Origin: a plasmid
DNA: 64,000 nt
Reading direction: 5' to 3' (one strand)
Sequence record: NZ_CP024587.1
Shown here: piece after piece, positions 2,802 to 63,179 of the stretch
Layout: each line of letters begins with the position of its first letter
Numbering within the stretch: position 1 is the stretch's first letter
Position numbers and translations under genes: made by a program
Notes under the pieces: generated by a model
What the model was told of the DNA's origin: nothing
Seen by the model: the letters and a program-made list of their open reading frames with translations, nothing else
The model's database searches: none

Positions 2802-3112
2802 AATACTATTTTGCGGAGTTTTACGGCTGGACTTTGGCCAGCATATGCCCGCAATGTCCACCGTCCGGACTCGTCACCCGACGTTTGCGGACATTCCTTC
2901 CACCGTCCTGTGAGGACCCAACCCATAGCGCGCTGAAAAGCAAAACGGCCGGTGCCTGCAAGCACCAGCCGTATCGCACTGAAAACTCTGGATTGGGCCA
3001 AAAATGTCTGACCCCAATCTAGAAACGGGCTCACCCTTCGTCAAGCGACACTTCGCCTGACAACGGGAGAGCCTTGTCGACGGTGCGGCTGCGCGCTCGC
3101 GAGGAGCGAGCC

Positions 3113-4441
3113 ATGTCGAGTTCGGATTCCGACCCCCCGGCCCCACCCCGGCCCACCGGCCGGCGCCGCGTCACCCCGGCGCAGATCCGCAACACCGCGG
3201 ACCTCACCGGCCGCATCGAGGCGGTCAGCCATGTGCGGGTGCTGGCGGTGTTCAAGCGGGTCTTCCCGCTGCTGGGCCTGGACGAGCGCCTGCGCACGCT
3301 GATCGACGTGCTGTTCCGCTACACCACGGCACAGGACTGGAACGGCGAGGGACTGCCGATCGTCTGGCCCGGCCGCTGGCAGCTGATGCGCGACCTCGGC
3401 CTCGGCCTGCGGGCGGTGCAGTACCACCTCGCTTTGGCGCTGGAGGCCGGGCTGATCGTCTCGCACGAGCAGGGCGGCGGGCAGCACTGGGGCATGCGGG
3501 ATGCGGAGGGACGCATCATCCGGGCCTCGGGCTTCAGCCTGGCGCCGCTGGCCGAGCGGCTGCCCGCCTGGGAGCGGCTGCTGGAGGTGCAGCGGCAGGA
3601 AGCGGCCGAGGCGGCGCGGCTGCGGCGCGAATGCGGCTTCCTGCGGCGGCGGACGCTGGAGCTGACGGCGCTGGGCCAGGCGCGCGAGCTGCCCGGTTCC
3701 GACTGGCTGGCGGTGGAACGGGAGGCCGAGGCCCTCACCCTCCAGAGCCGCCGCCTGGACGATCCGCGTCCCCTGGCCCCCATCGCCGGTCGGCTGCGCC
3801 TGTTGCTGGACGAGACCGAGCGCCTGATCCGGGCGGCCATCCCTGCGGATCACGGGGAGGATTCACCCCACGGTGCAACCTTGGTTCACCCCATTACAAC
3901 TACAAACCACCCCTCTATCGCTAAAGCGATTGCACCCGTCGCCTGCGGCCATGCTCAGGAGGCAGGAGCAGGCGGAACCGGATCGCAGGAGCGGTCGGCC
4001 ACGGAAGCGGTGGCAAAGGGAGCAGGAGGCGAGTCAGGACAGCCGGCGGTGCTGCGCGGCTTCCCGATGACGCCGGAGGTGCTGCTCCACCTCGTCCCGG
4101 GCCTGCGGGACCGGAGCCGCCGCGTGCCGGCCTCATGGCGCGATACCTGGGTGCTGGCCAGCGATGCCGGCGCCGAGATCGGCATCTCGAAACACGCCCG
4201 GCTGCACGCATTGAACCTGCTGGGCCAGCAGGGCGGCGCTGTGGCGCTGGGCACCGTGCTGGCCAAGCACGAGGCTGGCCTGATCCGTAATCCTGGCGGC
4301 TACCTGCGGCGGATGCTGGAGAAACACCAGGAGGGCGACCTGCATCTGGATCGGACTCTGCACGGGCTGGCCGATACTGTGGGCCGGACCGGTACGCCGA
4401 CTCGGGCATCGGGCGCGGCGGGATCCGTCATGCGACCGTGA
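3113..4441 (+). CDS. repA: RepA-like replication initiator / wHTH protein of alphaproteobacterial ICEs and plasmids
   Basis: ATG at 3113 has a GAGGAG RBS. The alternative TTG at 3074 is less likely. Sits downstream of an AT-rich region with short repeats, and its position beside the partition genes fits a replication/maintenance module. Homology is a recollection, not checked. Confidence 0.45.
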   Translation: MSSSDSDPPAPPRPTGRRRVTPAQIRNTADLTGRIEAVSHVRVLAVFKRVFPLLGLDERLRTLIDVLFRYTTAQDWNGEGLPIVWPGRWQLMRDLGLGLRAVQYHLALALEAGLIVSHEQGGGQHWGMRDAEGRIIRASGFSLAPLAERLPAWERLLEVQRQEAAEAARLRRECGFLRRRTLELTALGQARELPGSDWLAVEREAEALTLQSRRLDDPRPLAPIAGRLRLLLDETERLIRAAIPADHGEDSPHGATLVHPITTTNHPSIAKAIAPVACGHAQEAGAGGTGSQERSATEAVAKGAGGESGQPAVLRGFPMTPEVLLHLVPGLRDRSRRVPASWRDTWVLASDAGAEIGISKHARLHALNLLGQQGGAVALGTVLAKHEAGLIRNPGGYLRRMLEKHQEGDLHLDRTLHGLADTVGRTGTPTRASGAAGSVMRP

Positions 4442-4550: not shown

Positions 4551-4565
4551 GTTCTTGTTATGTTC
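4551..4565. promoter_or_regulatory. Alphaproteobacterial LexA (SOS) box GTTC-N7-GTTC
   Basis: GTTCttgttatGTTC read directly, 26 bp upstream of the 77-aa ORF that heads the imuB-dnaE2 operon. imuAB-dnaE2 cassettes are classically LexA-controlled. Confidence 0.55.
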
Positions 4566-4590: not shown

Positions 4591-4824
4591 ATGTCCGACG
4601 AGCGTCCCAACGAATCCAGCGGCAATCCGCTGACCCCCGCGCGGCCGGAGGAGGTGGCCGAGGCCCTGTCCTACGCTCTGCGCTACGACGAGCGCGGCCG
4701 GCCGCGACCGCATGGCGGCGAGATGATCGCGGATCTGGCGGCCCAGCACCTGGCCCGCCATCTGGAGCGGGCCGGCTTCGTGCTGATGAAGCGCCCGCCC
4801 GGTCGGCCGCACCATGTCGGCTGA
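4591..4824 (+). CDS. Small protein in the position normally held by imuA, translationally coupled to imuB
   Basis: 77 aa. Its stop overlaps the imuB ATG (ATGTCGGCTGA). No RecA/SulA-like fold is evident at this length. Confidence 0.35.
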   Translation: MSDERPNESSGNPLTPARPEEVAEALSYALRYDERGRPRPHGGEMIADLAAQHLARHLERAGFVLMKRPPGRPHHVG

Positions 4825-6331
4825 CCTGGAGCACGCCCGTCGCGTCGTCGCGCTGCGGCTGCCCTGGCTGGCCGTGGATGCGCTGCGGCGGCGAGCGCCG
4901 GATCTCGCTGGCCAGCCGGTCGCGACCTGGCAGGCCGTGGGCAACCGGCGGGTGCTGGTCTGCGCCGATGCCCCGCCCCTGCGGGCCGGGCAGTCGCTGG
5001 CCGATGCCCGGGCCATGCTGCCCGACCTCGTGCTGCGCCCCGCCGATACCGCCGGCGAGGCCGATCTGCTGCGCCGCCTCGCGACCTGTGCGCTGCGCTT
5101 CACGCCGGCCGTGGCGCTGGATGCTCCGGATGGGCTGATCCTCGACGTTACCGGCGCCACCAGCCTGTTCGGCGGCGAGACCGCCCTGCTGGCGACGCTG
5201 GAGGAGGGCTTCCGGCGAGCGGGCTACCGGGTGCGGGTCGCGATGGCCGGCAATGCCGATGCCGCCGCCGCCCTCGTCCAGGCCGGGTACCACGGCACCG
5301 TGGTGGCACCGGGCGAGGATGCCACGGCGCTGGACCCGCTACCGGTCGCGGCCCTCCGCTTGCCCGCCGGCGTCGCGGGCGGCCTGGCCCGGCTCGGGCT
5401 GCGGAGCGTGGGCGCGGTGCTGCGTCAGCCTCGGGCGCCGCTGGCCCGGCGCTTCGGGCGGCCGCTGCTCGATGCGCTGGACTTCGCCACCGGCGCCAGG
5501 GTCCGGCCTCTGCAGCTGATCCAGCCGCCGCCGGACTTCTCCGCCGCTCAGACCTTCCTGGAGCCCATCGTCACCCGCCCGGCGATCGACCGCGCCGTGG
5601 ACACGCTGCTGGAGGAGTTGTGCGGCGCGCTGACTGAGGCAGGCCGCGGCGCCCGCCGCCTGAGCCTGCTGACCTTCCGCGTCGACGGCGACGTGCAGGA
5701 GGTGGCGGTCGGCGTGGGCCAGGCCAGCCGCGCCCCGGCCCATCTGCGCCGGCTCTTCGTCGAGCCGCTGGGGCGGCTGGAGCCCGATTTGGGCTTCGAC
5801 CGCTTCGTGCTGCGCGCCACGGAGACCAACCCGCTCGCGGGAAGGCAGATGGCGACCGTCCTGGGCGGCGCGGAGGCGAATGGTGACCAGGAGACAGTGC
5901 TGTCGGAGCTGCTCGACCGGCTGAGCCAGCGCGTGATGCTGTGGCGTCCCAGCCCGACCGGTAGCCACTGGCCGGAGCGGGCGGTGGTCCCGGCCAATCC
6001 CTTCGTGCCGGCCATGGCGGCGCCCGAGGGCTGGGGCGAGCGGCGGCGGCCGGTGCGGCTGCTCGACCGGCCGCGCGAGCTGACGGTGATCGCCGAGGTT
6101 CCGGACGGCCCGCCGGCGCAGTTGCGCCTGGACGGGCGCGTGCACCGGGTGCGGCACGCGGCCGGCCCGGAGCGGCTGGAGCCGGAATGGTGGGGCGAGA
6201 CACACGACCGTCCCCGCCGGGACTACTTCCGGGTGCTGACCGGGACGGGGGAGCGGCTCTGGCTCTGCCGCCTCGGGGTGGACGGGCCCACGGCACCCGC
6301 GCGCTGGTTCCTGCACGGCTACCTGGCGTGA
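4814..6331 (+). CDS. imuB: ImuB, Y-family polymerase-like component of the mutagenesis cassette
   Basis: 505 aa. DinB-like N-terminal layout and gene order immediately upstream of dnaE2. An 8-bp gap separates it from dnaE2. Confidence 0.8.
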   Translation: MSADLEHARRVVALRLPWLAVDALRRRAPDLAGQPVATWQAVGNRRVLVCADAPPLRAGQSLADARAMLPDLVLRPADTAGEADLLRRLATCALRFTPAVALDAPDGLILDVTGATSLFGGETALLATLEEGFRRAGYRVRVAMAGNADAAAALVQAGYHGTVVAPGEDATALDPLPVAALRLPAGVAGGLARLGLRSVGAVLRQPRAPLARRFGRPLLDALDFATGARVRPLQLIQPPPDFSAAQTFLEPIVTRPAIDRAVDTLLEELCGALTEAGRGARRLSLLTFRVDGDVQEVAVGVGQASRAPAHLRRLFVEPLGRLEPDLGFDRFVLRATETNPLAGRQMATVLGGAEANGDQETVLSELLDRLSQRVMLWRPSPTGSHWPERAVVPANPFVPAMAAPEGWGERRRPVRLLDRPRELTVIAEVPDGPPAQLRLDGRVHRVRHAAGPERLEPEWWGETHDRPRRDYFRVLTGTGERLWLCRLGVDGPTAPARWFLHGYLA

Positions 6332-6338
6332 GGCTCCG

Positions 6339-9300
6339 ATGTCCCCCGCCTATGCCGAGCTCGGGTGCCGCTCGAACTTCACGCTGCTCGACGGCGCCTC
6401 GCACCCGCAGGAGCTGGTGGCCACGGCCGCGGCCCTTGGCCATGCCGGGCTGGGGCTCTGCGACACCAACTCCCTGGCCGGGGTGGTGCGCGGGCATGTC
6501 GCGGCGCGCGAGTTCGACCTGCCTTATGTCGTGGGCTGCCGGCTGCGGCTGGACGACGGCGCCGAGTACCTGGCCTGGCCCACCGACCGGACGTCCTACG
6601 GCCGTCTGACGCGGCTGCTCTCGCTCGGCCGGATGCGCTCACCCAAGGGCGAATGCGCCATCACCCGCGAGGAGATGCTGGCCCACGCACCGGGCTGGTG
6701 CCTCGCCGCCGTGTCGCCCCTCCGCCCCGACCTCGCCTTCGCCGATCGGCTGCAGGCCGATGCCCGGGCGCTGCGCGGCGTGCTGGCCCTGCCGCTGCTC
6801 TGCACCGCCACGGTGCGCTTCGACGACATCGACGAGGACCGGCTGGAGGCGCTGGCCGAGATGACGGCGGTGACCGGCACCGGCCTGCTCGCCACCAACG
6901 ACGTGCGCTACCACGCTCCCGGGCGCCGTCCCCTCGCCGACGTGCTGACGGCGATTCGCCTCGGCCGCCCCGTCGACCGCCTCGGACAGGCCGCCGAGCC
7001 CAACGCCGAGCGGCACCTCAAGCCGCCCGCCGAGATGGCGCGGCTGTTCCGCGATCATCCGGACGCCCTGCGCAGCACCCTGCGCGTGCTCGACGCGTGC
7101 CAGGGCTTCTCCCTCTCCCAACTCCGGCACGAGTACCCCGACGAGATCCTGGAGCCCGGCCGCACGCCGCAGCAGACGCTGGCCGTGCGGGTGGCCGAGG
7201 CCGCGACGGCGCGCTTTCCGCGCGGCGTGTCATCCGACATCCAGGCGCGCCTTGACCACGAGCTCGCCCTGATCGGGCAGCTGGACTACGCGCCCTACTT
7301 CCTGACCGTGGACGAGGTGGTGCGCTTCGCGCGGGGACGCGGCATTCTCTGCCAGGGGCGCGGCTCGGCCGCCAACTCCTCGGTCTGCTACGTGCTGGGC
7401 ATCACCGCGGTCGATCCCTCCAAACACGACCTGCTGTTCGAACGCTTCCTCTCGGCCGAGCGGGCCGAGCCGCCCGACATCGACGTCGACTTCGAGCATG
7501 AGCGCCGCGAGGAGGTGATCCAGTTCCTCTACCGCCGCTATGGGCGCGACCGCGCGGCCATCGTCGGCACGGTGATCCGCTTTCGCGGCCGCTCCGCCGT
7601 GCGCGAGGTCGGCAAGGTGCTCGGGCTGTCGGAGGACGTCACCGGCCGGCTGGCCAAGGCCAGCTGGGGGCCAGGGCGGGACGACAGCCTGGTCGAGATC
7701 GCCGCGGCCGAGGGGCTGGACCTCGCCGACCGCCGACTGCGCCTCGCCCTGGAGCTGGCGGAGGAGATCCAGGACTTCCCCCGGCATCTGGCCACCCATG
7801 TCGGCGGCTTCGTCATCTCGCGCGGGCCGCTGATCGAGATGGCCGTCATTGGCAACGCCGCCATGGACGGGCGCACGGTGCTGGAGTGGGACAAGAACGA
7901 CGTCGAGGCGCTTGGCCTGCTCAAGGTCGACATCCTGGCGCTGGGCATGTTGTCCTGCCTGCGGCGTGGCTTCGAGCTGCTGCGCCGGCACCGCCTCGCC
8001 GATCTCGACCTGGCCGCCGTGCCGCGCGACTGCGATGAAACCTACGCCATGCTGCGCCGGGCGGACTCCCTGGGCGTGTTCCAGGTCGAGAGTCGGGCGC
8101 AGATGAACATGCTGCCGCGGCTGCGGCCGAGCCGCTTCTACGACCTGGTGGTGCAGGTCGCGTTGGTCCGGCCCGGGCCGATCCAGGGCGACATGGTGCA
8201 TCCCTACCTGCGCCGGCGCTGGGGGGACGAGGCACCGGTCTACCCCTCCCCCGCGCCGGAGCATGGGCCGCCCGACGAGCTGGAGAAGGTGCTCGGCCGC
8301 ACTCTGGGCGTGCCACTGTTCCAGGAGCAGGCGATGCGGGTCGCCATCGTGGCGGCCGGCTTCTCCCCCGGTGAAGCCGACCAGCTCCGCCGTGCCATGG
8401 CGACCTTCAAATACACCCAGGGTGTTGCGGTGTATCGCGACAGGCTGGTCGGCGGCATGGTCCGTCGCGGCTACGACCCCGAGCTCGCCGAACGGGTGTT
8501 CAAGCAGATCGAGGGCTTCGGCAGCTACGGCTTTCCCGAGAGCCATGCCGCCTCCTTCGCCCACCTGGCCTACGCCTCGGCCTGGCTGAAATGCCACCAC
8601 CCGGCGGTGTTCGCCGCAGCACTGCTGAACAGCCAGCCGATGGGCTTCTACGCCCCGGCGCAGATCGTGCGCGACGCGCAACAGCACCGGGTGGTGGTGC
8701 GGCGACTGGACGTGAACGAGAGCCAATGGGACTGCACTCTGGAGCCAGAAGCTCGCAGCGCCGAGGGCCTGGCGCTGCGGCTGGGCCTGCGGCTGGCCGA
8801 GGGACTGGCGGCCGAGGACGGCAAGCGCGTGGCCGAGGCAAGGCGCGCGGGCAACGGCAGCCCCTTCGCCTCGGTCGACGAGGTGGTGCGCCGGGCGGGC
8901 GTCCCCCGGCGGGCGATCGAGGCGCTGGCCGCGGCGGATGGCTTCGCGGGCATGGGACTGGATCGCCGGACGGCCCTCTGGGACGCCAGGGGAGTCGAGA
9001 ACGATACCCCTCCCCTGCTGCGCCTCGCCGGCCAGGCAGCGGCGGCCGGCGAGCCGCCGCTGCTGTCCGAACCCTCCTCTGCCCTGCCGGCCGAGGACGA
9101 TGGGCAAGCGATGATGCTGGACTACGTTGCGACGGGCCTGAGCCTGCGACAGCATCCGCTCGCCCTGCTGCGGCCGAGGCTGCAAGCGCTGGGCTGCCGC
9201 ACGACGCGGGACCTGGACAGCCTGCGCGGCGGCGCCCGGATCCGGCTCGCCGGCCTGGTGCTGATGCGTCAGCGGCCCGGCACGGCCAAGGGCATCGTCT

Positions 9301-9581
9301 TTGTCACGGTGGAGGACGAGCACGGCACCGCCAACCTCGTCGTCTACGCCGACATCGCTGCACGCGACCGCGCTGCCCTGATCGGGGCCCGGCTGCTGCT
9401 GGTGGAGGGACGGATCGAGCGTGAGGCCGAGCGGGCCGAGGTGCCGGTCATCCACCTGATCTGCCGCCGATTGGAGGACCGCTCCGACTTGCTCAGAGGC
9501 CTTATGGATGACGATTTCAGCGGTCAAAGGCCCCCGGCTCAATCACCCAAAGGCATGCCAGCAAGCCGGGACTTTCGGTAA
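6339..9581 (+). CDS. dnaE2: Error-prone DNA polymerase DnaE2 (ImuC)
   Basis: 1080 aa. N-terminal PHP domain (MSPAYAELGCRSNFTLLDGAS...) and PolIIIalpha core motifs. The length is typical of DnaE2 rather than DnaE1. Confidence 0.9.
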   Translation: MSPAYAELGCRSNFTLLDGASHPQELVATAAALGHAGLGLCDTNSLAGVVRGHVAAREFDLPYVVGCRLRLDDGAEYLAWPTDRTSYGRLTRLLSLGRMRSPKGECAITREEMLAHAPGWCLAAVSPLRPDLAFADRLQADARALRGVLALPLLCTATVRFDDIDEDRLEALAEMTAVTGTGLLATNDVRYHAPGRRPLADVLTAIRLGRPVDRLGQAAEPNAERHLKPPAEMARLFRDHPDALRSTLRVLDACQGFSLSQLRHEYPDEILEPGRTPQQTLAVRVAEAATARFPRGVSSDIQARLDHELALIGQLDYAPYFLTVDEVVRFARGRGILCQGRGSAANSSVCYVLGITAVDPSKHDLLFERFLSAERAEPPDIDVDFEHERREEVIQFLYRRYGRDRAAIVGTVIRFRGRSAVREVGKVLGLSEDVTGRLAKASWGPGRDDSLVEIAAAEGLDLADRRLRLALELAEEIQDFPRHLATHVGGFVISRGPLIEMAVIGNAAMDGRTVLEWDKNDVEALGLLKVDILALGMLSCLRRGFELLRRHRLADLDLAAVPRDCDETYAMLRRADSLGVFQVESRAQMNMLPRLRPSRFYDLVVQVALVRPGPIQGDMVHPYLRRRWGDEAPVYPSPAPEHGPPDELEKVLGRTLGVPLFQEQAMRVAIVAAGFSPGEADQLRRAMATFKYTQGVAVYRDRLVGGMVRRGYDPELAERVFKQIEGFGSYGFPESHAASFAHLAYASAWLKCHHPAVFAAALLNSQPMGFYAPAQIVRDAQQHRVVVRRLDVNESQWDCTLEPEARSAEGLALRLGLRLAEGLAAEDGKRVAEARRAGNGSPFASVDEVVRRAGVPRRAIEALAAADGFAGMGLDRRTALWDARGVENDTPPLLRLAGQAAAAGEPPLLSEPSSALPAEDDGQAMMLDYVATGLSLRQHPLALLRPRLQALGCRTTRDLDSLRGGARIRLAGLVLMRQRPGTAKGIVFVTVEDEHGTANLVVYADIAARDRAALIGARLLLVEGRIEREAERAEVPVIHLICRRLEDRSDLLRGLMDDDFSGQRPPAQSPKGMPASRDFR

Positions 9582-53200: not shown

Positions 53201-53290
53201 CGGCGCTACGTCCTGCTGCCGAAGGCACAGGATGAGATCTTGCCGTATCGCGACGCCAAGGCGCCGCCTGATATGCGAGCGGCTATTGGG

Positions 53291-53378
53291 CATCGGGCGA
53301 GCATCGCGAGGGCATCGGGCGAGCATCGCGGAGGCGTCGGGCGAGCATCGCGGGAGCATCGGGCGAGCGCCGCCCGAG
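53291..53378. repeat. Four tandem roughly 22-bp direct repeats (CATCGGGCGAGCATCGCGRGG) in the divergent intergenic region between the accessory gene and the relaxase operon; oriT/iteron candidate
   Basis: Read directly. Followed by the IR CGGGCC-TGC-GGCCCG at about 53465-53480. Confidence 0.45.
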
Positions 53379-53556: not shown

Positions 53557-53874
53557 ATGGACGGCGCAGCCAACACCACCCCGATGCGAACGGCGGAAAC
53601 GGAAAGCAGGATCCTCGATCTGCTGCAGGAACACGGCGTCATCCTGCGGACCCAGAGCGAGCAGCTGGCCGCGATCCTCAAGGCCCTGACGCCCCCGCCG
53701 CAGGAAGGGCCCACCACGAGCGAAATGCTGCAGGCCATCATCGCCCTGCTGGGCGAGCACACCACGCTGCTGCAGGACAACAACGGCCACATCCTGGCCC
53801 TCCCGGCCTCCCTGCCGGGGCTGGTCGCCCGCGAGATCCGCCGCGGCCAGCGCCTCGGGGATCTCGCCGAATGA
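53557..53874 (+). CDS. Small protein (105 aa) immediately upstream of and ATGA-coupled to the relaxase; candidate relaxosome accessory (TraC/TraD-like)
   Basis: AAAGGAGAG RBS. Confidence 0.45.
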   Translation: MDGAANTTPMRTAETESRILDLLQEHGVILRTQSEQLAAILKALTPPPQEGPTTSEMLQAIIALLGEHTTLLQDNNGHILALPASLPGLVAREIRRGQRLGDLAE

Positions 53875-56800
53875 TGACCTTCCGCAAGCTCTCGGCCGCC
53901 GGCTCGGGCAAGCTGCTCCGCGCCTACTTCACCGAGAACACCCCCGAACCCGCGCGCGACCCGGCGACGACCCCGGGCCGACACCTCGACCCCGGCGGCC
54001 GCCTGACCGCCTACTACACCGGCCGCGACAGCCGCGCCTCCTGGCGGCCCGACATGCCCCGCGCCATCGCCAATGCCCTCGGCATCGACACCACCCGCAT
54101 GCCGAAGGACGAGGCCCTCGACCGGCTGTTCGAGGCCAGGCGCGCCGACACCGGCGAGGCCTGGTCCGACCAGAAGCGCGAGATCAGCGCCTACGACCTG
54201 ACGCTCGCGCCGCACAAGTCGGTCTCCCTGGCCGCCGAGTTCGCCGCCACCCCGGCCGAGCGCGCCGCCATCTGGTTCGCCATCGACCGCGCCAACGATG
54301 CCACCATGCGCTACGTCGCCCGCGAGCTGGGCTGGGCCCGCAAGGGCAAGGGCGGCTCCCTCGGCGCCGATCCGGGGGCGGTCGGATGGGTCAGCTTCCG
54401 CCACCACACCGCCCGCCCCACCGTCACCGTCCGCGACGGCAAGGCCGGCCCCACCTACCTCGCCGAGGTCACCAGCATGGCCGGCGACCCCCATGCCCAC
54501 ATCCACAACGCCCTGTTCAACGCCGTCGTGACCGAGGACGGCCGCGTCGGCTCCCTCGACACCCAGCGCCTCCATGCCCGGGTCCACGAGTTCGGCGCCT
54601 ACTTCCAGGCCCGGCTGGCCGACCACCTGCGCGAATTGGGCGCCCGCGTCTCCTACGACCGCCAGCAGCAGGCGGCGGTGCTCGACGCCATCCCCCAGGC
54701 GGCCTCCGACCTCTTCTCCAAGGGCCGCCGCCAGGTCGAGCGCTCCGCCCGGGCCTACGCCAGCAGCCAGGGCCTCGACTGGGACACCCTCTCGGCCGAG
54801 GGCAAGTTCAAAATCCTGGCCACCTCCGGCCTCGCCGCCCGTCTCGACAAGAACGCCGCCAAGGGCGACCGGGAGACCTGGCTGGCCCAGGCCGAGGCCA
54901 TCGGCTGGCGCCACGTCACCGTCATGGAGGAGGTGGAGCACACCCGCCTCCCCGACGCCGAGCGCCTCGACCGCGCCTACCGCTTCGCCGCCCGGCACCT
55001 GGCCACCGAGTTCCACACCGCCGCCGTCATCGACCACGACCGGCTGCGCCTCCACGCCGCCCGCGGCCTGATCGGCACCGGCATCGGCGGCGGCACCGGC
55101 GACATCGACCGGGTGGTCGAGCTGATCGAGCAGCGCGGCATCACCCTGCGCGGCGAGCACGTCGCCCTGCTCGTCGGCCTCTCCGGAGACAAGGTGCGGG
55201 TGACCAACACCGCCCAGCTGCGGCTGGAGGAGAGCCTGCAGGCCCAGGCCCACCGTGCCGCCCGCGATCGCTCGGGCGCCCTCCCGGCCGCCGCCATCAC
55301 CGCCGCGATCGACGCCGCCATCCGCGCCGGGCGGATCGACCTCACCCGCGAGCCCGCCCAGGCCGCCGCCCAGCGCGCGGCCATCTACGCCCTCGGCCAG
55401 GGCGGCGCCCTGTCCATGCTCACCGGCGTCGCCGGTGCCGGCAAGACCACCCTGCTGCAGCCGCTCGTGGCCGCCTGGAAGGCCGACACCCGCTTCGGCG
55501 CCGGCGGGCGCGAGGTGATCGGCGCGGCGACCGCCTGGCGCCAGGCCAGCGCCCTGGGTGATGCCGGCATCGAGCATACCGTGGCCATGGACCCGCTGCT
55601 GCGGAGCATCGAGGCCGGCCGCCTGGTGCCGACCCGCAACACGGTGCTGGTGATCGACGAGGTGAGCCAGGTCGCCCCGCGCGCCCTGCTGCGGCTGCTG
55701 GAGGTGCAGGCCCGCACCGGCATGACCATCAAGGTGCTGGGCGACCGCGAGCAGGCGCAGTCGGTCGAGGCGGGCGACGCGGTGGAGCTGATGCGCCGCG
55801 CCCTGCCCCGCTCCGAGCAGGCCGAGCTCCTCGACACCGTGCGGCAGGCCAGCCAGGAGGACCGCCACGTCGCCGGCCTGTTCCGCGAGGGCCGCGCCGC
55901 GGAGGCGCTGGCCCTCAAGCGGGCCCGCGGCGACGGCTCCGCCCGGCTGCTGGGCGGCGACCAGGACCAGGTGGTCGAGCAGATCGCCGACCTCTACATG
56001 GCCCGGCGCGACGCCCTGCTGGCCGCCGGCTCGAAGCTCGGCGTCACCATCTCGGCCCCCACCAACGAGGACGTGGCCGAGATCAGCCGCGCCATCCGCG
56101 GCCGCATGAAGGCCCGCGGCGAGATCGGCGCCGACGAGGTGGCCTACCAGGCGATCGACCAGCGCGGCGAGACCTACGACCTGCCGATCGCCACCGGCGA
56201 CAGGGTGCGCCTGTTCAGCCGCACCTGGGCGACGCTACCGGACGGGAAGCACACCTACATCGGCGCCAATGGCGACGTGCTGACCGTGGTCGGGCAGAGC
56301 CAACAGGGCCTGCGGCTGCGCAACAAGGACGGGTTGGTCGGTGACGTCGAATGGCAGCGGCTGCAGGACCGGGCGACGGGGCGGCTGCAGCTGGGCTTCG
56401 GGCATGCGCTGACGGTGGACGCGGCCCAGGGCATCACCTCGGCCGAGCACATCGACGCCCTGCCGCGCGGCACCGCCGGCGTCACCGCCTTCAAGGGCTA
56501 CGTCGCCGAGAGCCGCGCCAAAGGGACGACCTGGACCCTGATCTCCGAGGCCGCCACCTTCGAGGCGATCAAGCGTGGCCGGGCGCTGGGCGACGCCACC
56601 CCGATCACCAGCGAGGACCTCTGGGCCAAGGCGGCCGAGGGCCTGTCGCAGAAGCCCTACAAGCCGCTCGGCAGCGACCTGCTGGAGGACATGCGCGCGA
56701 GCCGCGAGAAGGCCACCAGCGCCTTCATCCGCTTCTCGCACCGCATGGAGATGGCGGAGCACCAGGGCCGCGACTTCGCCCGCGAAGTCCGCGACCACCG

Positions 56801-56993
56801 CGAGGCGATGGCCATCCAGGCCGAGATGCCGCGCAACCTCACCGCGCTGGACGAGGCGCTGCGGCAGATGCGGGGCGGCGCCGTCACGCCGGCGGAGGAG
56901 CACCTGCGGCGGCTGCGCGTCGAGACCGAAGTGGCGCGACGGGAGATCGAGGCATCGGTCCGCCCGTCGTCGCCCTCTGCAGCGGTAGGGTGA
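53871..56993 (+). CDS. traA: MOBF-family relaxase with C-terminal SF1 helicase (TrwC/TraA-like)
   Basis: Relaxase motif III-like HHTARP...GDPHAHIHNALFN (His triad). Walker A GVAGAGKTT about 500 aa in. 1040 aa. Confidence 0.85.
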   Translation: MMTFRKLSAAGSGKLLRAYFTENTPEPARDPATTPGRHLDPGGRLTAYYTGRDSRASWRPDMPRAIANALGIDTTRMPKDEALDRLFEARRADTGEAWSDQKREISAYDLTLAPHKSVSLAAEFAATPAERAAIWFAIDRANDATMRYVARELGWARKGKGGSLGADPGAVGWVSFRHHTARPTVTVRDGKAGPTYLAEVTSMAGDPHAHIHNALFNAVVTEDGRVGSLDTQRLHARVHEFGAYFQARLADHLRELGARVSYDRQQQAAVLDAIPQAASDLFSKGRRQVERSARAYASSQGLDWDTLSAEGKFKILATSGLAARLDKNAAKGDRETWLAQAEAIGWRHVTVMEEVEHTRLPDAERLDRAYRFAARHLATEFHTAAVIDHDRLRLHAARGLIGTGIGGGTGDIDRVVELIEQRGITLRGEHVALLVGLSGDKVRVTNTAQLRLEESLQAQAHRAARDRSGALPAAAITAAIDAAIRAGRIDLTREPAQAAAQRAAIYALGQGGALSMLTGVAGAGKTTLLQPLVAAWKADTRFGAGGREVIGAATAWRQASALGDAGIEHTVAMDPLLRSIEAGRLVPTRNTVLVIDEVSQVAPRALLRLLEVQARTGMTIKVLGDREQAQSVEAGDAVELMRRALPRSEQAELLDTVRQASQEDRHVAGLFREGRAAEALALKRARGDGSARLLGGDQDQVVEQIADLYMARRDALLAAGSKLGVTISAPTNEDVAEISRAIRGRMKARGEIGADEVAYQAIDQRGETYDLPIATGDRVRLFSRTWATLPDGKHTYIGANGDVLTVVGQSQQGLRLRNKDGLVGDVEWQRLQDRATGRLQLGFGHALTVDAAQGITSAEHIDALPRGTAGVTAFKGYVAESRAKGTTWTLISEAATFEAIKRGRALGDATPITSEDLWAKAAEGLSQKPYKPLGSDLLEDMRASREKATSAFIRFSHRMEMAEHQGRDFAREVRDHREAMAIQAEMPRNLTALDEALRQMRGGAVTPAEEHLRRLRVETEVARREIEASVRPSSPSAAVG

Positions 56994-57045
56994 CGGGTTC
57001 GGGGCTTATGGAGGAAGGCCGGCCGGGTGGGATGGGAGCCTTGCA

Positions 57046-59493
57046 TCAGCCGGTCGGGTCGGTGCGGAAAGCCGCCCGTTCCCGGTGCTTCGCCAGGAGC
57101 TCGGAGGCCCGTTCCAGGATGCCGCCCGGCATGCCCGCCCTGGCGGCCACGCGCAAGCCGTAGGACTGGCCCGCCCGCCCGGGCTTGACCTTGTAGGCGA
57201 ACATCTCCTCGTGCCGCCCGGCCGCGGCGTCCATCATCATGCAGGCCCCGTGCTCCATCGCCTCGGCGACGTCGGCGAGCTCGTGGTAGTGCGTCGCGAA
57301 CAGCGTGCGGCAGCCCACGACGTCGTGCAGGTACTCCATGCACGCCTGGGCGATGGCCAGGCCGTCGTGGGTGGAGGTGCCCCGGCCGACCTCATCGAGG
57401 ATCACCAGCGAGCGATCGGTCGCCTGGTTCATGATGGCCGCGGTTTCCAGCATCTCCACCATGAAGGTCGAACGGCCGGCGGCTAGGTCGTCGGACGCGC
57501 CGATCCGGCTGAACAGCTTATCGACGATCCCGACCCGGGCGTGGCTCGCCGGCACGAAGGAGCCGATCTGGGCCAGCAGCACGACGATCGCGACCTGCCG
57601 CAGGAAGGTGGACTTGCCTGCCATGTTGGGACCGGTCAGCAGCCACAGCCGGTTGCCGCCTCCCATCACGCAGTCGTTCTGCACGAAGGTCCGGCCCTGC
57701 CCTTCCAGCAGTCGCTCCGAGACGGGATGACGGCCGCCCTGGATGGCCAGCACGCCCTCGGTGGTCAGCTCCGGCTCGGTCCACAGGCTCTCGGCCGCTG
57801 CCTGGGCCAGCCCGCACACGAGGTCCAGCGCCGCCGCCGCATGCGCCACCCGCATCAGCGCTTCGCGGAGGCCCAGCACCGCTGAGGCGAGGGACCGGAA
57901 CACCGCCTGCTCTACCGATCGGGCCTGTTCCGTGGCTGCCTCCAGGGCGCCGGCGAGCTGATCCAGCTCCGTCGTCGAGAAGCGGGTGGTGGACGCCAGA
58001 CCCTGTCGCAGCCGGAATTCGGAACCGAGGCCCCTGGCGGCAGCGGAGGGGACTTCGACATGGTACCCGAGTACCAAATTGGATCGGATCTTTAGGGTCT
58101 TGATCCCGGTCTCCTGCGCGTAGCGGCCCTGCAGCGCCTCGATCGCTGCCTTCGTCGCCTCCACCTCCGTGCGCAACTTGTCCAGGCGCTCGTCATACAG
58201 CGGGGCGACGAAGCCCGGCTCGGTCACCGAGAGGGGCGGCGCCGCGATCAGGGCCCGTCGCAACATGGCGGCCACGCCGCGCCGCACGCCCTCGGCGGCG
58301 CCAAGCTCCCGACGGGCCGTCGCCAGGCCGGGTGGCAGATCCGAACTCTCGTCCAGGCGCGCCGTCAGCACGGCGGCACAGCCCAGACCGTCCCGCACCG
58401 CTGCAAGGTCCCGGGGGCCGCCCTTGCCGAGCGACAGGCGTCCGCAGGCCCGCAGCAGATCAGGCATGCCGGACAGGCCTTCCCGGCAGCTGCGGCGCAG
58501 GCCGACGTCCGCCACGAGGTAGCGCACCATCGCCAGCCGGCGGCCGATCACCTCAATGCTGGTCAGCGGCGCGCAGAGCTGGCGCCGCAGCAGCCGGGCG
58601 CCGGCGGCCGTCACCGTGCGATCAAGTACCGCGAGCAACGACCCTTCGGCACCGGACGCCGAGTCCAGCACTTCCAGGCCCCGCAGGGTCGGTGCATCGA
58701 TCTCCATGGTGTCGCCAGTCGCCGCCCGGCGCGGTGACGGCAGCGCCGCCGGCAACTGCCCGACGACAACCCTGACATGGTCCAGCAGGGCGGCCAGCGC
58801 GCGCAGCTCCGGCGGCGAGAAGCCACGCATCGCGGTCCGCCCGGCCGGTCCGAACGCCTCGGACAGCACGGCCTCGACCGCTTCCGGCGTCAGGGACGGA
58901 CGGCCGAGGTCGCCATGGCGAAGGCCCGCGCTGCGGATGGCGACGGCGAGCGCATCCGAATCCTCGGGCCACTGTGCCACCAGGATCTCGGAAGGGCCAA
59001 TGCGGGCCAGGGCCGGCCCGCATCCCTCGAGCGAGGCCATGCAGGTGCTGATCTCGCTGGTGGACAGGTCGATCCAGGCGAACGCCACCGCCCGACCCTC
59101 GGCCAGGGCGACGGTCAGGTTGTTGGCCCTGCCCGCAACCAGCACGTCGGCATCGACCGAGGTGGCCGGCGTCATCAGACGCAGGGGGCGCTCGCCCCCC
59201 GCCTCGACGGGCTGCTCGGAGAGAGCGACCCTGTGCCCGGCGGCCAGCAGGCGGGCGACGGCCCCGGCGGCACTGGCCGATGGCACGCCGCACATCGGCA
59301 CGTCGGGCGCATCCCTCTGCCGCCGGTGGGTCAGCTGCAGGCCGAGCGCCCGGGAGGCGATCGGGGCATCGGAGCCGAGGATCTCGTAGAACTCGCCGAC
59401 CCGGTACAGCACCAGGTAGCCCGGCGCCGCCGCGCTCGCCTGCGCGTGAGCGGCCATCATCGGGCTGGCGGGGGGCCGGGTAGGTGTGTCCAT
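57046..59493 (-). CDS. mutS: MutS-family mismatch-recognition ATPase, full length (815 aa)
   Basis: Domain I motif LYRVGEFYEIL (the GxFYE Phe-x-Glu mismatch-contact motif). C-terminal ABC ATPase TGPNMAGKSTFLRQVA ... LVILDEVGRGTSTHDG. Confidence 0.8.
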   Translation of the reverse strand: MDTPTRPPASPMMAAHAQASAAAPGYLVLYRVGEFYEILGSDAPIASRALGLQLTHRRQRDAPDVPMCGVPSASAAGAVARLLAAGHRVALSEQPVEAGGERPLRLMTPATSVDADVLVAGRANNLTVALAEGRAVAFAWIDLSTSEISTCMASLEGCGPALARIGPSEILVAQWPEDSDALAVAIRSAGLRHGDLGRPSLTPEAVEAVLSEAFGPAGRTAMRGFSPPELRALAALLDHVRVVVGQLPAALPSPRRAATGDTMEIDAPTLRGLEVLDSASGAEGSLLAVLDRTVTAAGARLLRRQLCAPLTSIEVIGRRLAMVRYLVADVGLRRSCREGLSGMPDLLRACGRLSLGKGGPRDLAAVRDGLGCAAVLTARLDESSDLPPGLATARRELGAAEGVRRGVAAMLRRALIAAPPLSVTEPGFVAPLYDERLDKLRTEVEATKAAIEALQGRYAQETGIKTLKIRSNLVLGYHVEVPSAAARGLGSEFRLRQGLASTTRFSTTELDQLAGALEAATEQARSVEQAVFRSLASAVLGLREALMRVAHAAAALDLVCGLAQAAAESLWTEPELTTEGVLAIQGGRHPVSERLLEGQGRTFVQNDCVMGGGNRLWLLTGPNMAGKSTFLRQVAIVVLLAQIGSFVPASHARVGIVDKLFSRIGASDDLAAGRSTFMVEMLETAAIMNQATDRSLVILDEVGRGTSTHDGLAIAQACMEYLHDVVGCRTLFATHYHELADVAEAMEHGACMMMDAAAGRHEEMFAYKVKPGRAGQSYGLRVAARAGMPGGILERASELLAKHRERAAFRTDPTG

Positions 59494-59949
59494 TATCGAG
59501 AGATGCCGCGTCCCCGGCCCGGTTTCCAGTTCGTCCAGGCGGTGCCGCCCGCCATGTCCCCGGCTGCGAGGTGCGGGCCCGGGTCGGCATCGGTAGCGCC
59601 GAGTTTGCCCGGACCTACGCCACCGTGCCGGTCCGGGCGGATGCGGTGCTGATCTCCCTCGGCGCCAACGATGGAGCCCGATCCGATACCCTGGAGCAAC
59701 TGGCGGCCGTCCGCGCCGCGGTGATCGCCCGCCGGGTCACCTGGGTTCTGCCAGCCCGGGGAGAGGCCGCCCGCTCCACCTCCCCCAGCCGGCGCGCCGG
59801 CAGGCCGGCGACCCCTCCGGCCGACACGCCCGCCGGGGTGGCGGCGACCGCGACCAGGAAATCGAGCGCCGTCCGCACGTCCCGTTCGGTGATGAAGTGC
59901 GGATGATCGGGGCCGCGATAGCAGATCGGGATGGCGCACGGGACGAAGG

Positions 59950-60876
59950 TCACGACGTAGCCTCCTGGGCAACGCCGGTCAGGGGCGGCCGCCGCTGTGG
60001 GCGTCGCAGGTTGGCTGGTGGCAGGGCCGGCGTGCCGGCGCGGGCATACCGACCCCAGCCGACGCGAACGACCTCGCCGGACGCCTGCAGGGCGCGGAGA
60101 TGGCCGGTGACGTTGGAGATCGAACGGCCGACATGGCCGGCGATCTCGCCCGCCTGACGCGGCTCCGACAGGAAGCTCAGGATGGCATCGCCCACCCGCC
60201 GCCCCCGCGTGCGCGAATCTCCACCGCAGGGCGCCGGCAAGGCAACCAGTCCGGCAGAACGGGTCCCGGTCGGGGCGTAGAGGCCGGGCCCCAGGTGGGC
60301 CACTTCACCGCGGCGAAGCATCGCCTGCAGCAGGTCGTTCATCCGGGCCGGGGGCAGGCCCAGGAGCCTCGCCAGATGGAAGCTGCGGATCGGCCGGGCG
60401 GGCTCGGCAAGGACCGCGCCCCGCGCCAGCATCCGGACCAGGGCCTGGCGCTGGGAGGGGGTCGGCACCCGGATCCCGGCCCGCCGCCATGATCCCTGCG
60501 GGCCACGCTCGGCGGCACCGAGGCGCATCAACGCCTCCACCTCGGCCCCGATCACGGCGGGCGGCAAGGCGGTATGGGACCATAGATGGGCCAGGGATAC
60601 CCCGCCGGTGACCGGCAAGGCCGCGGCAATGCGACGGCTGGCGGACCACTCCGGGTCCACCGGGCCATCCCGCAGCTCGGCTACGGAATCGGTCCGGATC
60701 ACGAGGTCCTGGCAGTAAGGGCGCAGATGGTCCCGGGCGGAAAGCCCGAGCAGCACCAGCGCCACCTCGGCCGGGCTCGCATCGCACTCCCGCGCGAGAG
60801 CGCCCACGCCGAGAGGGCGTGTCAGAGCCGTCCAGAGCCTCGCCGCCAGATCGCCCGCCAGCTCCTGACCGGCCAT
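59950..60876 (-). CDS. Winged-HTH DNA-binding protein (about 308 aa) translationally coupled (ATGA) to the coupling-protein gene
   Basis: Start at MAGQELAGD. wHTH-like segments GDLAARLWTALTRPLGVGALARE and ILSFLSEPRQAGEIAGHVGRSISNVTGHLRALQASGEV. Confidence 0.45.
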   Translation of the reverse strand: MAGQELAGDLAARLWTALTRPLGVGALARECDASPAEVALVLLGLSARDHLRPYCQDLVIRTDSVAELRDGPVDPEWSASRRIAAALPVTGGVSLAHLWSHTALPPAVIGAEVEALMRLGAAERGPQGSWRRAGIRVPTPSQRQALVRMLARGAVLAEPARPIRSFHLARLLGLPPARMNDLLQAMLRRGEVAHLGPGLYAPTGTRSAGLVALPAPCGGDSRTRGRRVGDAILSFLSEPRQAGEIAGHVGRSISNVTGHLRALQASGEVVRVGWGRYARAGTPALPPANLRRPQRRPPLTGVAQEATS

Positions 60877-63179
60877 CACGAAGCCAGCCGCGCGGTCAAG
60901 AGGCGTACCCGCCCGGCCAGCTCCTCCGGACCCATGGCGGGCGGCTCCGGCAGGATGACGAGCCTCGCCTGCGCGAGGGCCTGCCCAACCGCTGCCGCCG
61001 CGGCCTGGGCTTCCTCCGGGCTCTGGCCGGCCAGCACCTCGATCGCGGCCACCGCACGCTCGACCTGTGGCGAACGGCGCAGCCAAAGGGCTGAGCCGGG
61101 GCCGGCCGGAGGGAGCGGCTCAGCCGGCGTCGTCCCGCTCTCCAGCATGGCCGTGCTCGACGTCACAGGAGGCTCGGTTCCGGGATCACCGGCCGGACGT
61201 GGCACCATCACGAGGCCAGCCGCGGCGACGGCCGCCGTGGCCCTTTCCGACAGCGAGGCGGACCCTGACGCCGCGAACACCTCCACCATAGCGGCCAGCG
61301 CGGCGTCCGGCTGCTCCGGGACACCCATGGGCACCCGGCCCGTCTCGATATGCCCCAGGACGTCGATGATCCGCCTGGCCTCCTCCTGCGTCTCGTCCGT
61401 GGGCCCTGCCAGCATGACCGGCCGGTTGCGGCGGATCGGACCCTCGACCTCGATCGCCGCGTGGTACAGCTTGGCGTAGACGCGCCGGCCGCCGAGCAGG
61501 ATCACCGCCTCGCCCTCCAGCAGCTTCTGCAGGTCGGACCAGGCAACACGGTTGACCTTGCGAACCTCGGCCGATGGTCCTTCGCGGTAGTTTCCCGCCT
61601 CGCCCGCGACGAAGCTCGTCGCCTGCGTCACCTCAGTCTCGCCGGCGGTCTTCTCGATCCAGTTCCGGGTGCGCTCCGCATCCTGCTGGCGCATGGCGAT
61701 GGTCAGGTTGGCGTTGCCCAGCAGCGAGGCGGTCTTCTCGCCGAGACGGGCCCAGACGCCGCTGATCTCCTGGAAGGCCAGCCAGAAGGCGATGTTGAGG
61801 CCGCGCCCCATGGCCAGCATGCGGTCCATGCCGTTGGTCGCATAGTAGGCCAGCTCGTCGAAGACGACGTAGAACGGGCCCTCGCCCATCCCGGGCTTGA
61901 GCGAGAAGATCTCCCGGGTGTCGCCTTCGAGGCGGGCGCCCAGCAGCTGCGCGAGCATGCCGCGCAGGCTGGCCACGACGATCTTTCCCAGCGACGCCAG
62001 GGTGTCGTCGGAGTTCTCCAGCGCCGGCAGGTTGACCACGAGGATGCGCCGGTTCAGCACCACGTCGCGCATGTCGATGTCGCCATGCGTGACCTTGAAG
62101 ATGTGCCCCAGGCTGACCGACAGCTGGGTGAAGGGGCCGGTGAAGTAGAACAGCGCGAAGCCGTGCTGCTTCGACGGCTCCTCGCCCTTCTGCTTGTTGT
62201 AGGGCTGGGTGGTGTCGTAGCCCGGCAGCTCGCCGAGATAGGCGTTCAGCGGGTAGAGGATCTCCTCGGGGATATCGTTGACGAAGATCTCCCTCACCGT
62301 TCCCCTGATGCCCTCGCGGTGCAGGAAGACCTTGCGGGTCGCCAGCATGCCGATGGAGCGCAGCTCCAGCGCGAAGCGGATCGTCTCGATGTTGATCGGG
62401 ATGCCCTTCTCGTCGCGCATCCACACCAGCACCGGGGCGATGGTCCCGACCAGCGCGATCGCGCGGGTGCGGAAGACGCCGTTGCTGTCCTCGGAGCGCT
62501 GCTCGCCCAGCTGGCTGACCAGCATCTCGCGCAGCGCATCGGCATTGCCGTGGGCAAAGGGATTGAAGGTGTTGCTGTCCTTCACGCCGGAGGCCACGAG
62601 GAGGTTGAGGGCCAGGAGGTCATCCTCCCGGCCATAGTGCCGCAGCAGCGCCGCGACCTGGCCGTAGAGCTGGTTGTCGGCCTTGCCGTCGACCAGCACG
62701 AAGCCGGTTCCCTGGGCCAGCGCATTGGTCAGCAGGCTGAGGATGGCCGTGGTCTTGCCGGCGCCGGTGGTGCCGGGGATGGTGCAGTGCTGGCGCGCAT
62801 CCTCGTTGGTGATCCACAGCTCCTGTCCGGTCACCTGGTCGGTGCCGAGGTAGAGGCTGCCCGCGGCCATGCGAGGCGAGCGGTCCTTCGGGCTCGGGTA
62901 GTTCCAGTCGAGCTGGCCCGCGCTCTGTGGCAGGCGCAGCGGCAGCATGACATGCCGGCGCATGACCCAGGCCGCATAGGCGATCGAGGTGGGCACCAGC
63001 AGATCGAGGGCCGCCGGGAAGAAGAACGCCCCCGCCGCGGTCACCCCCAGCAGGAGGCCGGAAAACTGGCTGCCGAGCAGTTCGGCGAGCCGCACGGTGA
63101 GCGGCCGCACGTCGCGGTAGCCCATGCCGCCGCCACGCTCGAAGCGGCCTTGCGGACCGGAAATCTCGCGCTGGATCAT
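60876..63179 (-). CDS. traG: Type IV coupling protein (TraD/VirD4/TraG family)
   Basis: 767 aa. N-terminal TM region. Walker A TIPGTTGAGKTT. Walker B/DE region FYVVFDELAYYATNG. Confidence 0.85.
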   Translation of the reverse strand: MIQREISGPQGRFERGGGMGYRDVRPLTVRLAELLGSQFSGLLLGVTAAGAFFFPAALDLLVPTSIAYAAWVMRRHVMLPLRLPQSAGQLDWNYPSPKDRSPRMAAGSLYLGTDQVTGQELWITNEDARQHCTIPGTTGAGKTTAILSLLTNALAQGTGFVLVDGKADNQLYGQVAALLRHYGREDDLLALNLLVASGVKDSNTFNPFAHGNADALREMLVSQLGEQRSEDSNGVFRTRAIALVGTIAPVLVWMRDEKGIPINIETIRFALELRSIGMLATRKVFLHREGIRGTVREIFVNDIPEEILYPLNAYLGELPGYDTTQPYNKQKGEEPSKQHGFALFYFTGPFTQLSVSLGHIFKVTHGDIDMRDVVLNRRILVVNLPALENSDDTLASLGKIVVASLRGMLAQLLGARLEGDTREIFSLKPGMGEGPFYVVFDELAYYATNGMDRMLAMGRGLNIAFWLAFQEISGVWARLGEKTASLLGNANLTIAMRQQDAERTRNWIEKTAGETEVTQATSFVAGEAGNYREGPSAEVRKVNRVAWSDLQKLLEGEAVILLGGRRVYAKLYHAAIEVEGPIRRNRPVMLAGPTDETQEEARRIIDVLGHIETGRVPMGVPEQPDAALAAMVEVFAASGSASLSERATAAVAAAGLVMVPRPAGDPGTEPPVTSSTAMLESGTTPAEPLPPAGPGSALWLRRSPQVERAVAAIEVLAGQSPEEAQAAAAAVGQALAQARLVILPEPPAMGPEELAGRVRLLTARLAS

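Follow-up and report, generated by a model that had tools for sequence, protein, structure and literature searches.

MutS is usually viewed as a chromosomal housekeeping protein that is coupled to the replisome. Canonical alphaproteobacterial MutS1, as in Caulobacter crescentus, has five domains with a Phe-x-Glu wedge, an ABC ATPase and a dimerisation helix-turn-helix (HTH), together with PF27441 and a DDLPLF-type beta-clamp motif. In Caulobacter, MutS needs this motif to localise to the replisome, whereas repair can proceed without it (PMC8034640). E. coli MutS800, or MutS-deltaC800, is an artificial truncation just past the HTH domain with reduced repair and anti-recombination (PMC1636413, PMC4521584). 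It keeps partial activity, and the E. coli C-terminal domain is important for full repair and for anti-recombination (PMC1636413). On conjugative elements, MutS-derived DNA recognition has been described in the form of isolated domain-I modules, fused in giant multidomain proteins of Bacteroidetes and Firmicutes and often associated with ArdC-type leading-region functions (2017, PMC5512222). Plasmid backbones and leading regions also carry repair and mutagenesis genes in the form of error-prone polymerase cassettes (umuDC/mucAB-type, imuB-dnaE2). We found no published description of a plasmid-borne full-length MutS.

We analysed a stretch of 64,000 nucleotides from sequence record NZ_CP024587.1, here called the window. 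It belongs to a Roseomonas conjugative plasmid of about 265 kb, not to an ICE, and carries a mutS gene within its transfer region. The features used below are as follows.

3074-4441: repC, in the same window
4551-4565, plus strand: LexA box GTTCTTGTTATGTTC of the alphaproteobacterial type (GTTC-N7-GTTC), upstream of imuB; the sole exact match in the window
4814-6331, plus strand: imuB-like Y-family gene, in the same window
6339-9581, plus strand: dnaE2 (NF004225, 1300 bits)
53290-53368, unstranded: 7.2 copies of the 11-bp unit GCATCGGGCGA, upstream of the small-orf/mobF operon
53871-56993, plus strand: MobF relaxase-helicase (TrwC domain and helicase domain), convergent with mutS
56945-59946, unstranded: segment of 3002 bp delimited by blastn breakpoints and holding the last 16 or so codons of mobF, mutS, the 121-bp spacer and orf112
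57046-59493, minus strand: mutS of the plasmid-specific clade, 815 aa, with domains I-V and the HTH/dimerisation helix, without C-terminal clamp-binding or tetramerisation domain
59494-59614, minus strand: spacer of 121 bp between orf112 and the mutS start
59615-59953, minus strand: orf112, hypothetical protein with no family match, overlapping the stop of the HTH gene by 4 nt
59950-60876, minus strand: HTH-domain protein, last conserved gene of the T4CP operon
60876-63179, minus strand: type IV coupling protein, T4CP (TrwB_AAD_bind, TraG-D_C)

An earlier note on this DNA had placed mutS between a MobF relaxase and an HTH/T4CP operon, and the neighbours are as it said. On the Roseomonas gilardii U14-5 plasmid, Dot/Icm-type T4SS genes come after the T4CP gene, past the point that corresponds to the window end. 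The 11-bp repeat ahead of the relaxase operon is, we infer, a candidate oriT or a binding region for an accessory protein. The note had also described a LexA-controlled error-prone cassette on the same element. The imuB-dnaE2 genes are there with a LexA-type box upstream, but chance alone would also be expected to give one match in the window (55 of 100 shuffles), and the box is suggestive by its position alone.

No GTTC-N7-GTTC box was found near mutS, and LexA/SOS control of this gene was rejected. The polymerases of such cassettes create mismatches, whereas MutS senses them; the two kinds of gene co-occur on these plasmids, and no regulatory link between them was found. Consensus scans of 56800-60100, which are weak for DNA of 70% GC, detected neither a sigma-70-like promoter nor a terminator. 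Because mutS follows T4CP, HTH and orf112 on the same strand with no terminator detected, the gene order suggests that it may be co-expressed with the transfer genes.

The mutS ORF starts with ATG and has no internal stops. In Pfam, MutS_I, III, IV and V exceeded their cut-offs and MutS_II scored 24.0 bits against a cut-off of 25. The NCBIfam model PRK05399 MutS (NF003810) was passed with 742.8 bits (cut-off 480). TIGR01070 (mutS1) fell short of its cut-off of 641.7 with 613.4 bits and covered profile positions 2-785 of 840 only. The E. coli MutS crystal chains aligned with the window protein from end to end (query 10-800, chain 11-793, E = 3e-121), and this alignment together with Pfam placed domains I-V in the canonical MutS1 order. 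The mismatch motif GEFYEI aligned to GDFYEL (E. coli F36/E38). The ATPase motifs were all there: Walker A GPNMAGKST, signature STFMVEM, Walker B DEVGRGTS and the THY histidine. Past the HTH helix, 15 residues remain to the end of the protein. The earlier description of a full-length, functional protein of MutS1 type thus holds for the five domains, the Phe-x-Glu motif and the ABC ATPase, which are intact, but not for the C-terminus, where about 55-70 canonical residues are missing.

Other assignments were considered. MutS2 belongs to the same ATPase family and acts outside replication-coupled repair, as the window protein may do, but it has no mismatch-binding domain I and ends in an Smr nuclease; the window protein has domain I and no Smr match, and scored 166 bits with TIGR01069 (MutS2) against a cut-off of 400. 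The protein fits no known anti-phage defence-system protein model in PADLOC, where its sole match was mad8 (P-loop; 17.5 bits, E = 5.6e-4). An exact-sequence look-up with the protein returned no record.

The window protein belongs to a clade of more than 120 sequence clusters, and all named members are from Acetobacteraceae. In a neighbour-joining tree, the 114 clade tips were grouped without intruders on a stem of 0.29, and monophyly had a bootstrap of 100/100. Clustering at 50% collapsed the clade into one full-length representative (1080 bits); the next match scored 558 bits at 46% identity. Canonical alphaproteobacterial MutS1 is the nearest relative, and the clade shares 40-46% identity with any canonical MutS, compared with 54-58% among canonical alphaproteobacterial MutS from different orders. 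A first neighbour-joining tree had placed P0209 and P0254 as sister of the clade. This placement, probably caused by long-branch attraction, was rejected, as P0209 lies in a eukaryotic gene context.

A homologue search from the nearest canonical representative (P0122) gave proteins of Parvibaculum, Kiloniellaceae and Pelagibius and none of Acetobacteraceae, and tblastn of the same protein against PLSDB gave no Acetobacteraceae chromosome. A scan of genome contigs with the window protein found two unrelated loci only.

Wherever a long context was examined, mutS lay on a plasmid or in an integrated element. Complete plasmids with a mutS of this clade were found in Roseomonas and Kozakia. On metagenomic contigs the neighbours were T4SS/T4CP/TrwC, ParA, RepA_C, DUF3991-Toprim, ArdC, SSB, ParB_N, UvrD and umuDC, the last directly beside mutS at three loci (L016, L073 and L074). 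At two loci (L011 and L016) mutS lies among ssb/ardC/parB-type genes; in the window the relaxase separates it from the ssb/ArdC/ParB_N block, and the two are on opposite strands. On short metagenomic contigs, 43 loci had 2 kb or more of flanking sequence; T4CP, T4SS or MobF was present in 3 of them and any mobile-element marker in 18, and the neighbours fell into 160 Pfam families. A general link of the clade to conjugation genes was therefore rejected: with 3 of 43 loci and such heterogeneous neighbours, the link to a transfer module is valid for the plasmid lineage of the window and not for the whole clade. The clade is a previously undescribed, plasmid-only branch of MutS, and the window gene is not one borrowed from the host.

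Within the plasmid lineage, mutS lies beside the point where the T4CP operon ends, as seen in the window, R. gilardii U14-5 plasmid 1, R. mucosa HV3, the metagenomic locus L010 and two Kozakia plasmids. Amino acid identities to the window for MutS, MobF and T4CP were 99%, 97.5% and 96.7% in U14-5, 68%, 75% and 71% in HV3, and 61%, 61% and 51% at L010; in Kozakia they were 55% for MutS and 53% for T4CP. Because the divergence of MutS tracks that of T4CP and the relaxase, mutS is better described, on these sequence comparisons, as a long-standing backbone gene of the plasmid lineage. The earlier note had called it cargo of the element and not flanking chromosome; the gene does belong to a single mobile replicon, within its transfer region, but it appears to be backbone rather than a recent acquisition.

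The 3002-bp segment with mutS and orf112 is present in the window and in U14-5 plasmid 1, and orf112 occurs in these two plasmids only. In R. mucosa AD1 plasmid unnamed2 the segment is replaced by 83 bp, and this is all that separates the relaxase from the HTH/T4CP operon (both at about 92-93% amino acid identity to the window). The relaxase and the T4CP operon are thus contiguous on a sister plasmid and do not belong to two adjacent elements with chromosomal DNA between them. The absence of mutS from AD1 plasmid unnamed2 means that the gene is not universal in the lineage and, since close relatives do without it, that neither the maintenance nor the transfer of these plasmids requires it. Plasmids with homeologous MobF backbones do share cells, as at least two of them are present in strain AD1.

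A dispensable gene could be a chromosomal gene captured recently, a decaying passenger or an assembly artefact, and the pN/pS between the window and U14-5 mutS (0.39) is based on 16 changes, too few for a firm value. However, the same arrangement recurs in independent complete plasmids and on one metagenomic contig, and the AD1 plasmid shows the two transfer modules joined. In addition, the clade is monophyletic, has a mobile element in each long context examined and keeps its motifs invariant in more than 100 diverged members. Capture, decay or artefact is already contradicted by these data and is, in our judgement, very improbable.

The catalytic core of the clade is strictly conserved. F35, E37, Walker A K627, Walker B D700/E701, S675 and H735 were invariant in 114 of 114 members. 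Identity by domain was similar within the clade and among canonical alphaproteobacterial MutS, at 0.71 and 0.80, respectively, for domain I, 0.60 and 0.58 for II, 0.64 and 0.57 for III, 0.66 and 0.64 for IV, and 0.79 and 0.80 for V. The clade has GEF before the wedge phenylalanine, where the universal form is GDF. Four connector-domain residues (W175, P176, S179 and G245) are newly conserved in it.

The C-terminus has been lost. Past residue 800 the tail had a median length of 12 aa in the clade versus 69 aa in other MutS. A clamp-type motif was found in none of 114 clade proteins but in 28 of 30 canonical alphaproteobacterial ones, and PF27441 was listed for 0 of 120 and 120 of 120, respectively. 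A few chromosomal MutS are also without a C-terminal tail (for example, P0137), which makes the tail typical and not universal. The clade proteins have the same structural end point as MutS800, and for this reason they are expected to be dimers that bind mismatches and form sliding clamps. Unlike MutS800, they represent a natural, conserved state with further surface changes. Loss of the clamp motif alone need not abolish repair, because the motif is dispensable for repair in Caulobacter (PMC8034640).

The further changes concern the surfaces that contact MutL. Residues of the E. coli MutS-MutL interface (Q211/Q212; P595/I597/M759; PMC4521584) were mapped by alignment, at about 30% identity in domain II. 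The equivalents of Q211/Q212 are R-R in canonical alphaproteobacterial proteins (24 of 30 and 26 of 30) and mostly A/T/G followed by V/L/I in the clade. The equivalent of M759 is L or M in all 30 canonical alphaproteobacterial proteins and in 120 of 139 diverse MutS, but T, A or S in 112 of the 114 clade proteins. The clade also has a conserved motif of its own, C751-M752...G759-R-H761, and an insertion, G600-R601. At both surfaces, therefore, the clade residues differ from those of canonical alphaproteobacterial and of diverse MutS and are conserved within the clade. Since no clade member has the beta-clamp motif or the tetramerisation domain, and both MutL-contact patches are changed, the window protein is not a standard MutS1: of the MutS1-type assignment in the note, a complete and constrained mismatch-binding ATPase remains, in a non-standard form. 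The comparison set consisted of canonical alphaproteobacterial and diverse MutS, and the surfaces that we call remodelled could also simply match the MutL of the host itself.

Partners were sought on the plasmid. A MutL gene on the element had been proposed as something to look for, but the annotation of the U14-5 record (265 kb) lists none. [quoted passage not shown] An all-against-all comparison of ORFs within 6 kb of mutS at 12 loci detected no conserved small neighbour that might be a dedicated partner; the ORFs common to loci were T4CP, T4SS, MobF and DUF3991-Toprim only.

With no MutL found on the plasmid, any repair by the plasmid MutS would have to use host MutL. This would agree with an ordinary spare copy, which works with host MutL as chromosomal MutS does and either adds repair capacity, for instance to offset mutagenesis by ImuB/DnaE2 or UmuDC, or makes up for the loss of mutS in a host. 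Its five domains, complete catalytic motifs and a score above the PRK05399 equivalog cut-off point in the same direction, as do the dispensability of the clamp motif for Caulobacter repair, the partial activity of E. coli MutS800, and the error-prone polymerases on the same plasmids or near the gene (window, L016, L073/L074). However, both mapped MutL-contact patches are unlike the strongly conserved residues of canonical alphaproteobacterial MutS and show conservation of their own. A shuttle for a host gene should also resemble host genes, and the long stem branch and low identity to canonical MutS, set against the identity among orders, do not show this. We consider a spare copy possible but doubtful. 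Simple rescue of mutS-deficient hosts would fit poorly with the remodelled partner surfaces.

The features lost or altered (tetramerisation domain, clamp motif and MutL patches) are those of downstream signalling, while mismatch binding is kept, and error-prone polymerases are encoded on the same plasmid. Such a pattern might be expected of a mutator or hyper-recombination factor that occupies mismatches, or mixes dimers with host MutS, without recruiting MutL. It would dampen host repair and, with ImuB-DnaE2, raise mutation and homeologous recombination. Yet a pure blocker needs no invariant Walker B glutamate, signature serine and His loop, which all 114 members have. The connector domain is constrained as in canonical MutS and has its newly conserved residues, which argues for a retained rather than a lost partner. 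We regard a mutator function as unlikely.

Because the tail that links MutS to the replication machinery has been lost and the MutL-contact surfaces have changed, the plasmid MutS probably has a task different from routine mismatch repair in the host. Our preferred reading, with a probability of roughly 0.4, is that it may be an active sensor of mismatches and heteroduplexes, uncoupled from the replisome and with an altered partner surface, that serves plasmid integrity; its effector and its phenotype are what we infer from the sequences. The protein would bind a mismatch and then form an ATP-driven sliding clamp, as any MutS does, but would scan DNA freely instead of riding the replisome. Its signal would pass through the changed surface, and the receiver would be either a host MutL that has co-adapted or a different effector. 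The benefit for the plasmid would be surveillance of DNA that is poorly covered by the replisome-bound host system, including patches made by plasmid-encoded error-prone polymerases, conjugative synthesis, and heteroduplexes with co-resident sister plasmids of 75-93% identity. Repair or rejection of such heteroduplexes would keep the integrity and identity of the plasmid. The idea of heteroduplex rejection is weakened by the importance of the C-terminal domain for anti-recombination in E. coli (PMC1636413).

Tentatively, and with considerable doubt, the MutS clamp might have been rewired to an effector outside the canonical MutL interaction. It would then be part of a plasmid system that detects heteroduplexes between near-identical plasmids or in newly transferred DNA, and that enforces plasmid identity by rejecting homeologous recombination or cointegrates, or switches host repair off on demand. 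Effects of the plasmid MutS on the mutation or recombination rates of the host, as the earlier note proposed them, are speculation.

Like the domain-I modules of other conjugative elements, the window protein is a case of MutS-derived DNA recognition recruited to such an element. In contrast to them, it is a stand-alone, complete protein with its ATPase, and it comes from Alphaproteobacteria. During its time on mobile elements the clade has become as diverse as canonical MutS is across the orders of Alphaproteobacteria. This suggests that plasmids can own a mismatch sensor and re-purpose it, dropping the replisome tether and changing the partner surfaces. Should the sensor control how sister plasmids recombine or how fast plasmid-bearing cells mutate, plasmids would encode a genome-stability or incompatibility function of a new kind, and the clade would serve as a natural experiment that separates the parts of MutS by the task for which each is needed. 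One of the host species is Roseomonas mucosa, a skin commensal and opportunist of humans that has many large plasmids, and effects on plasmid evolution would therefore be of practical interest.

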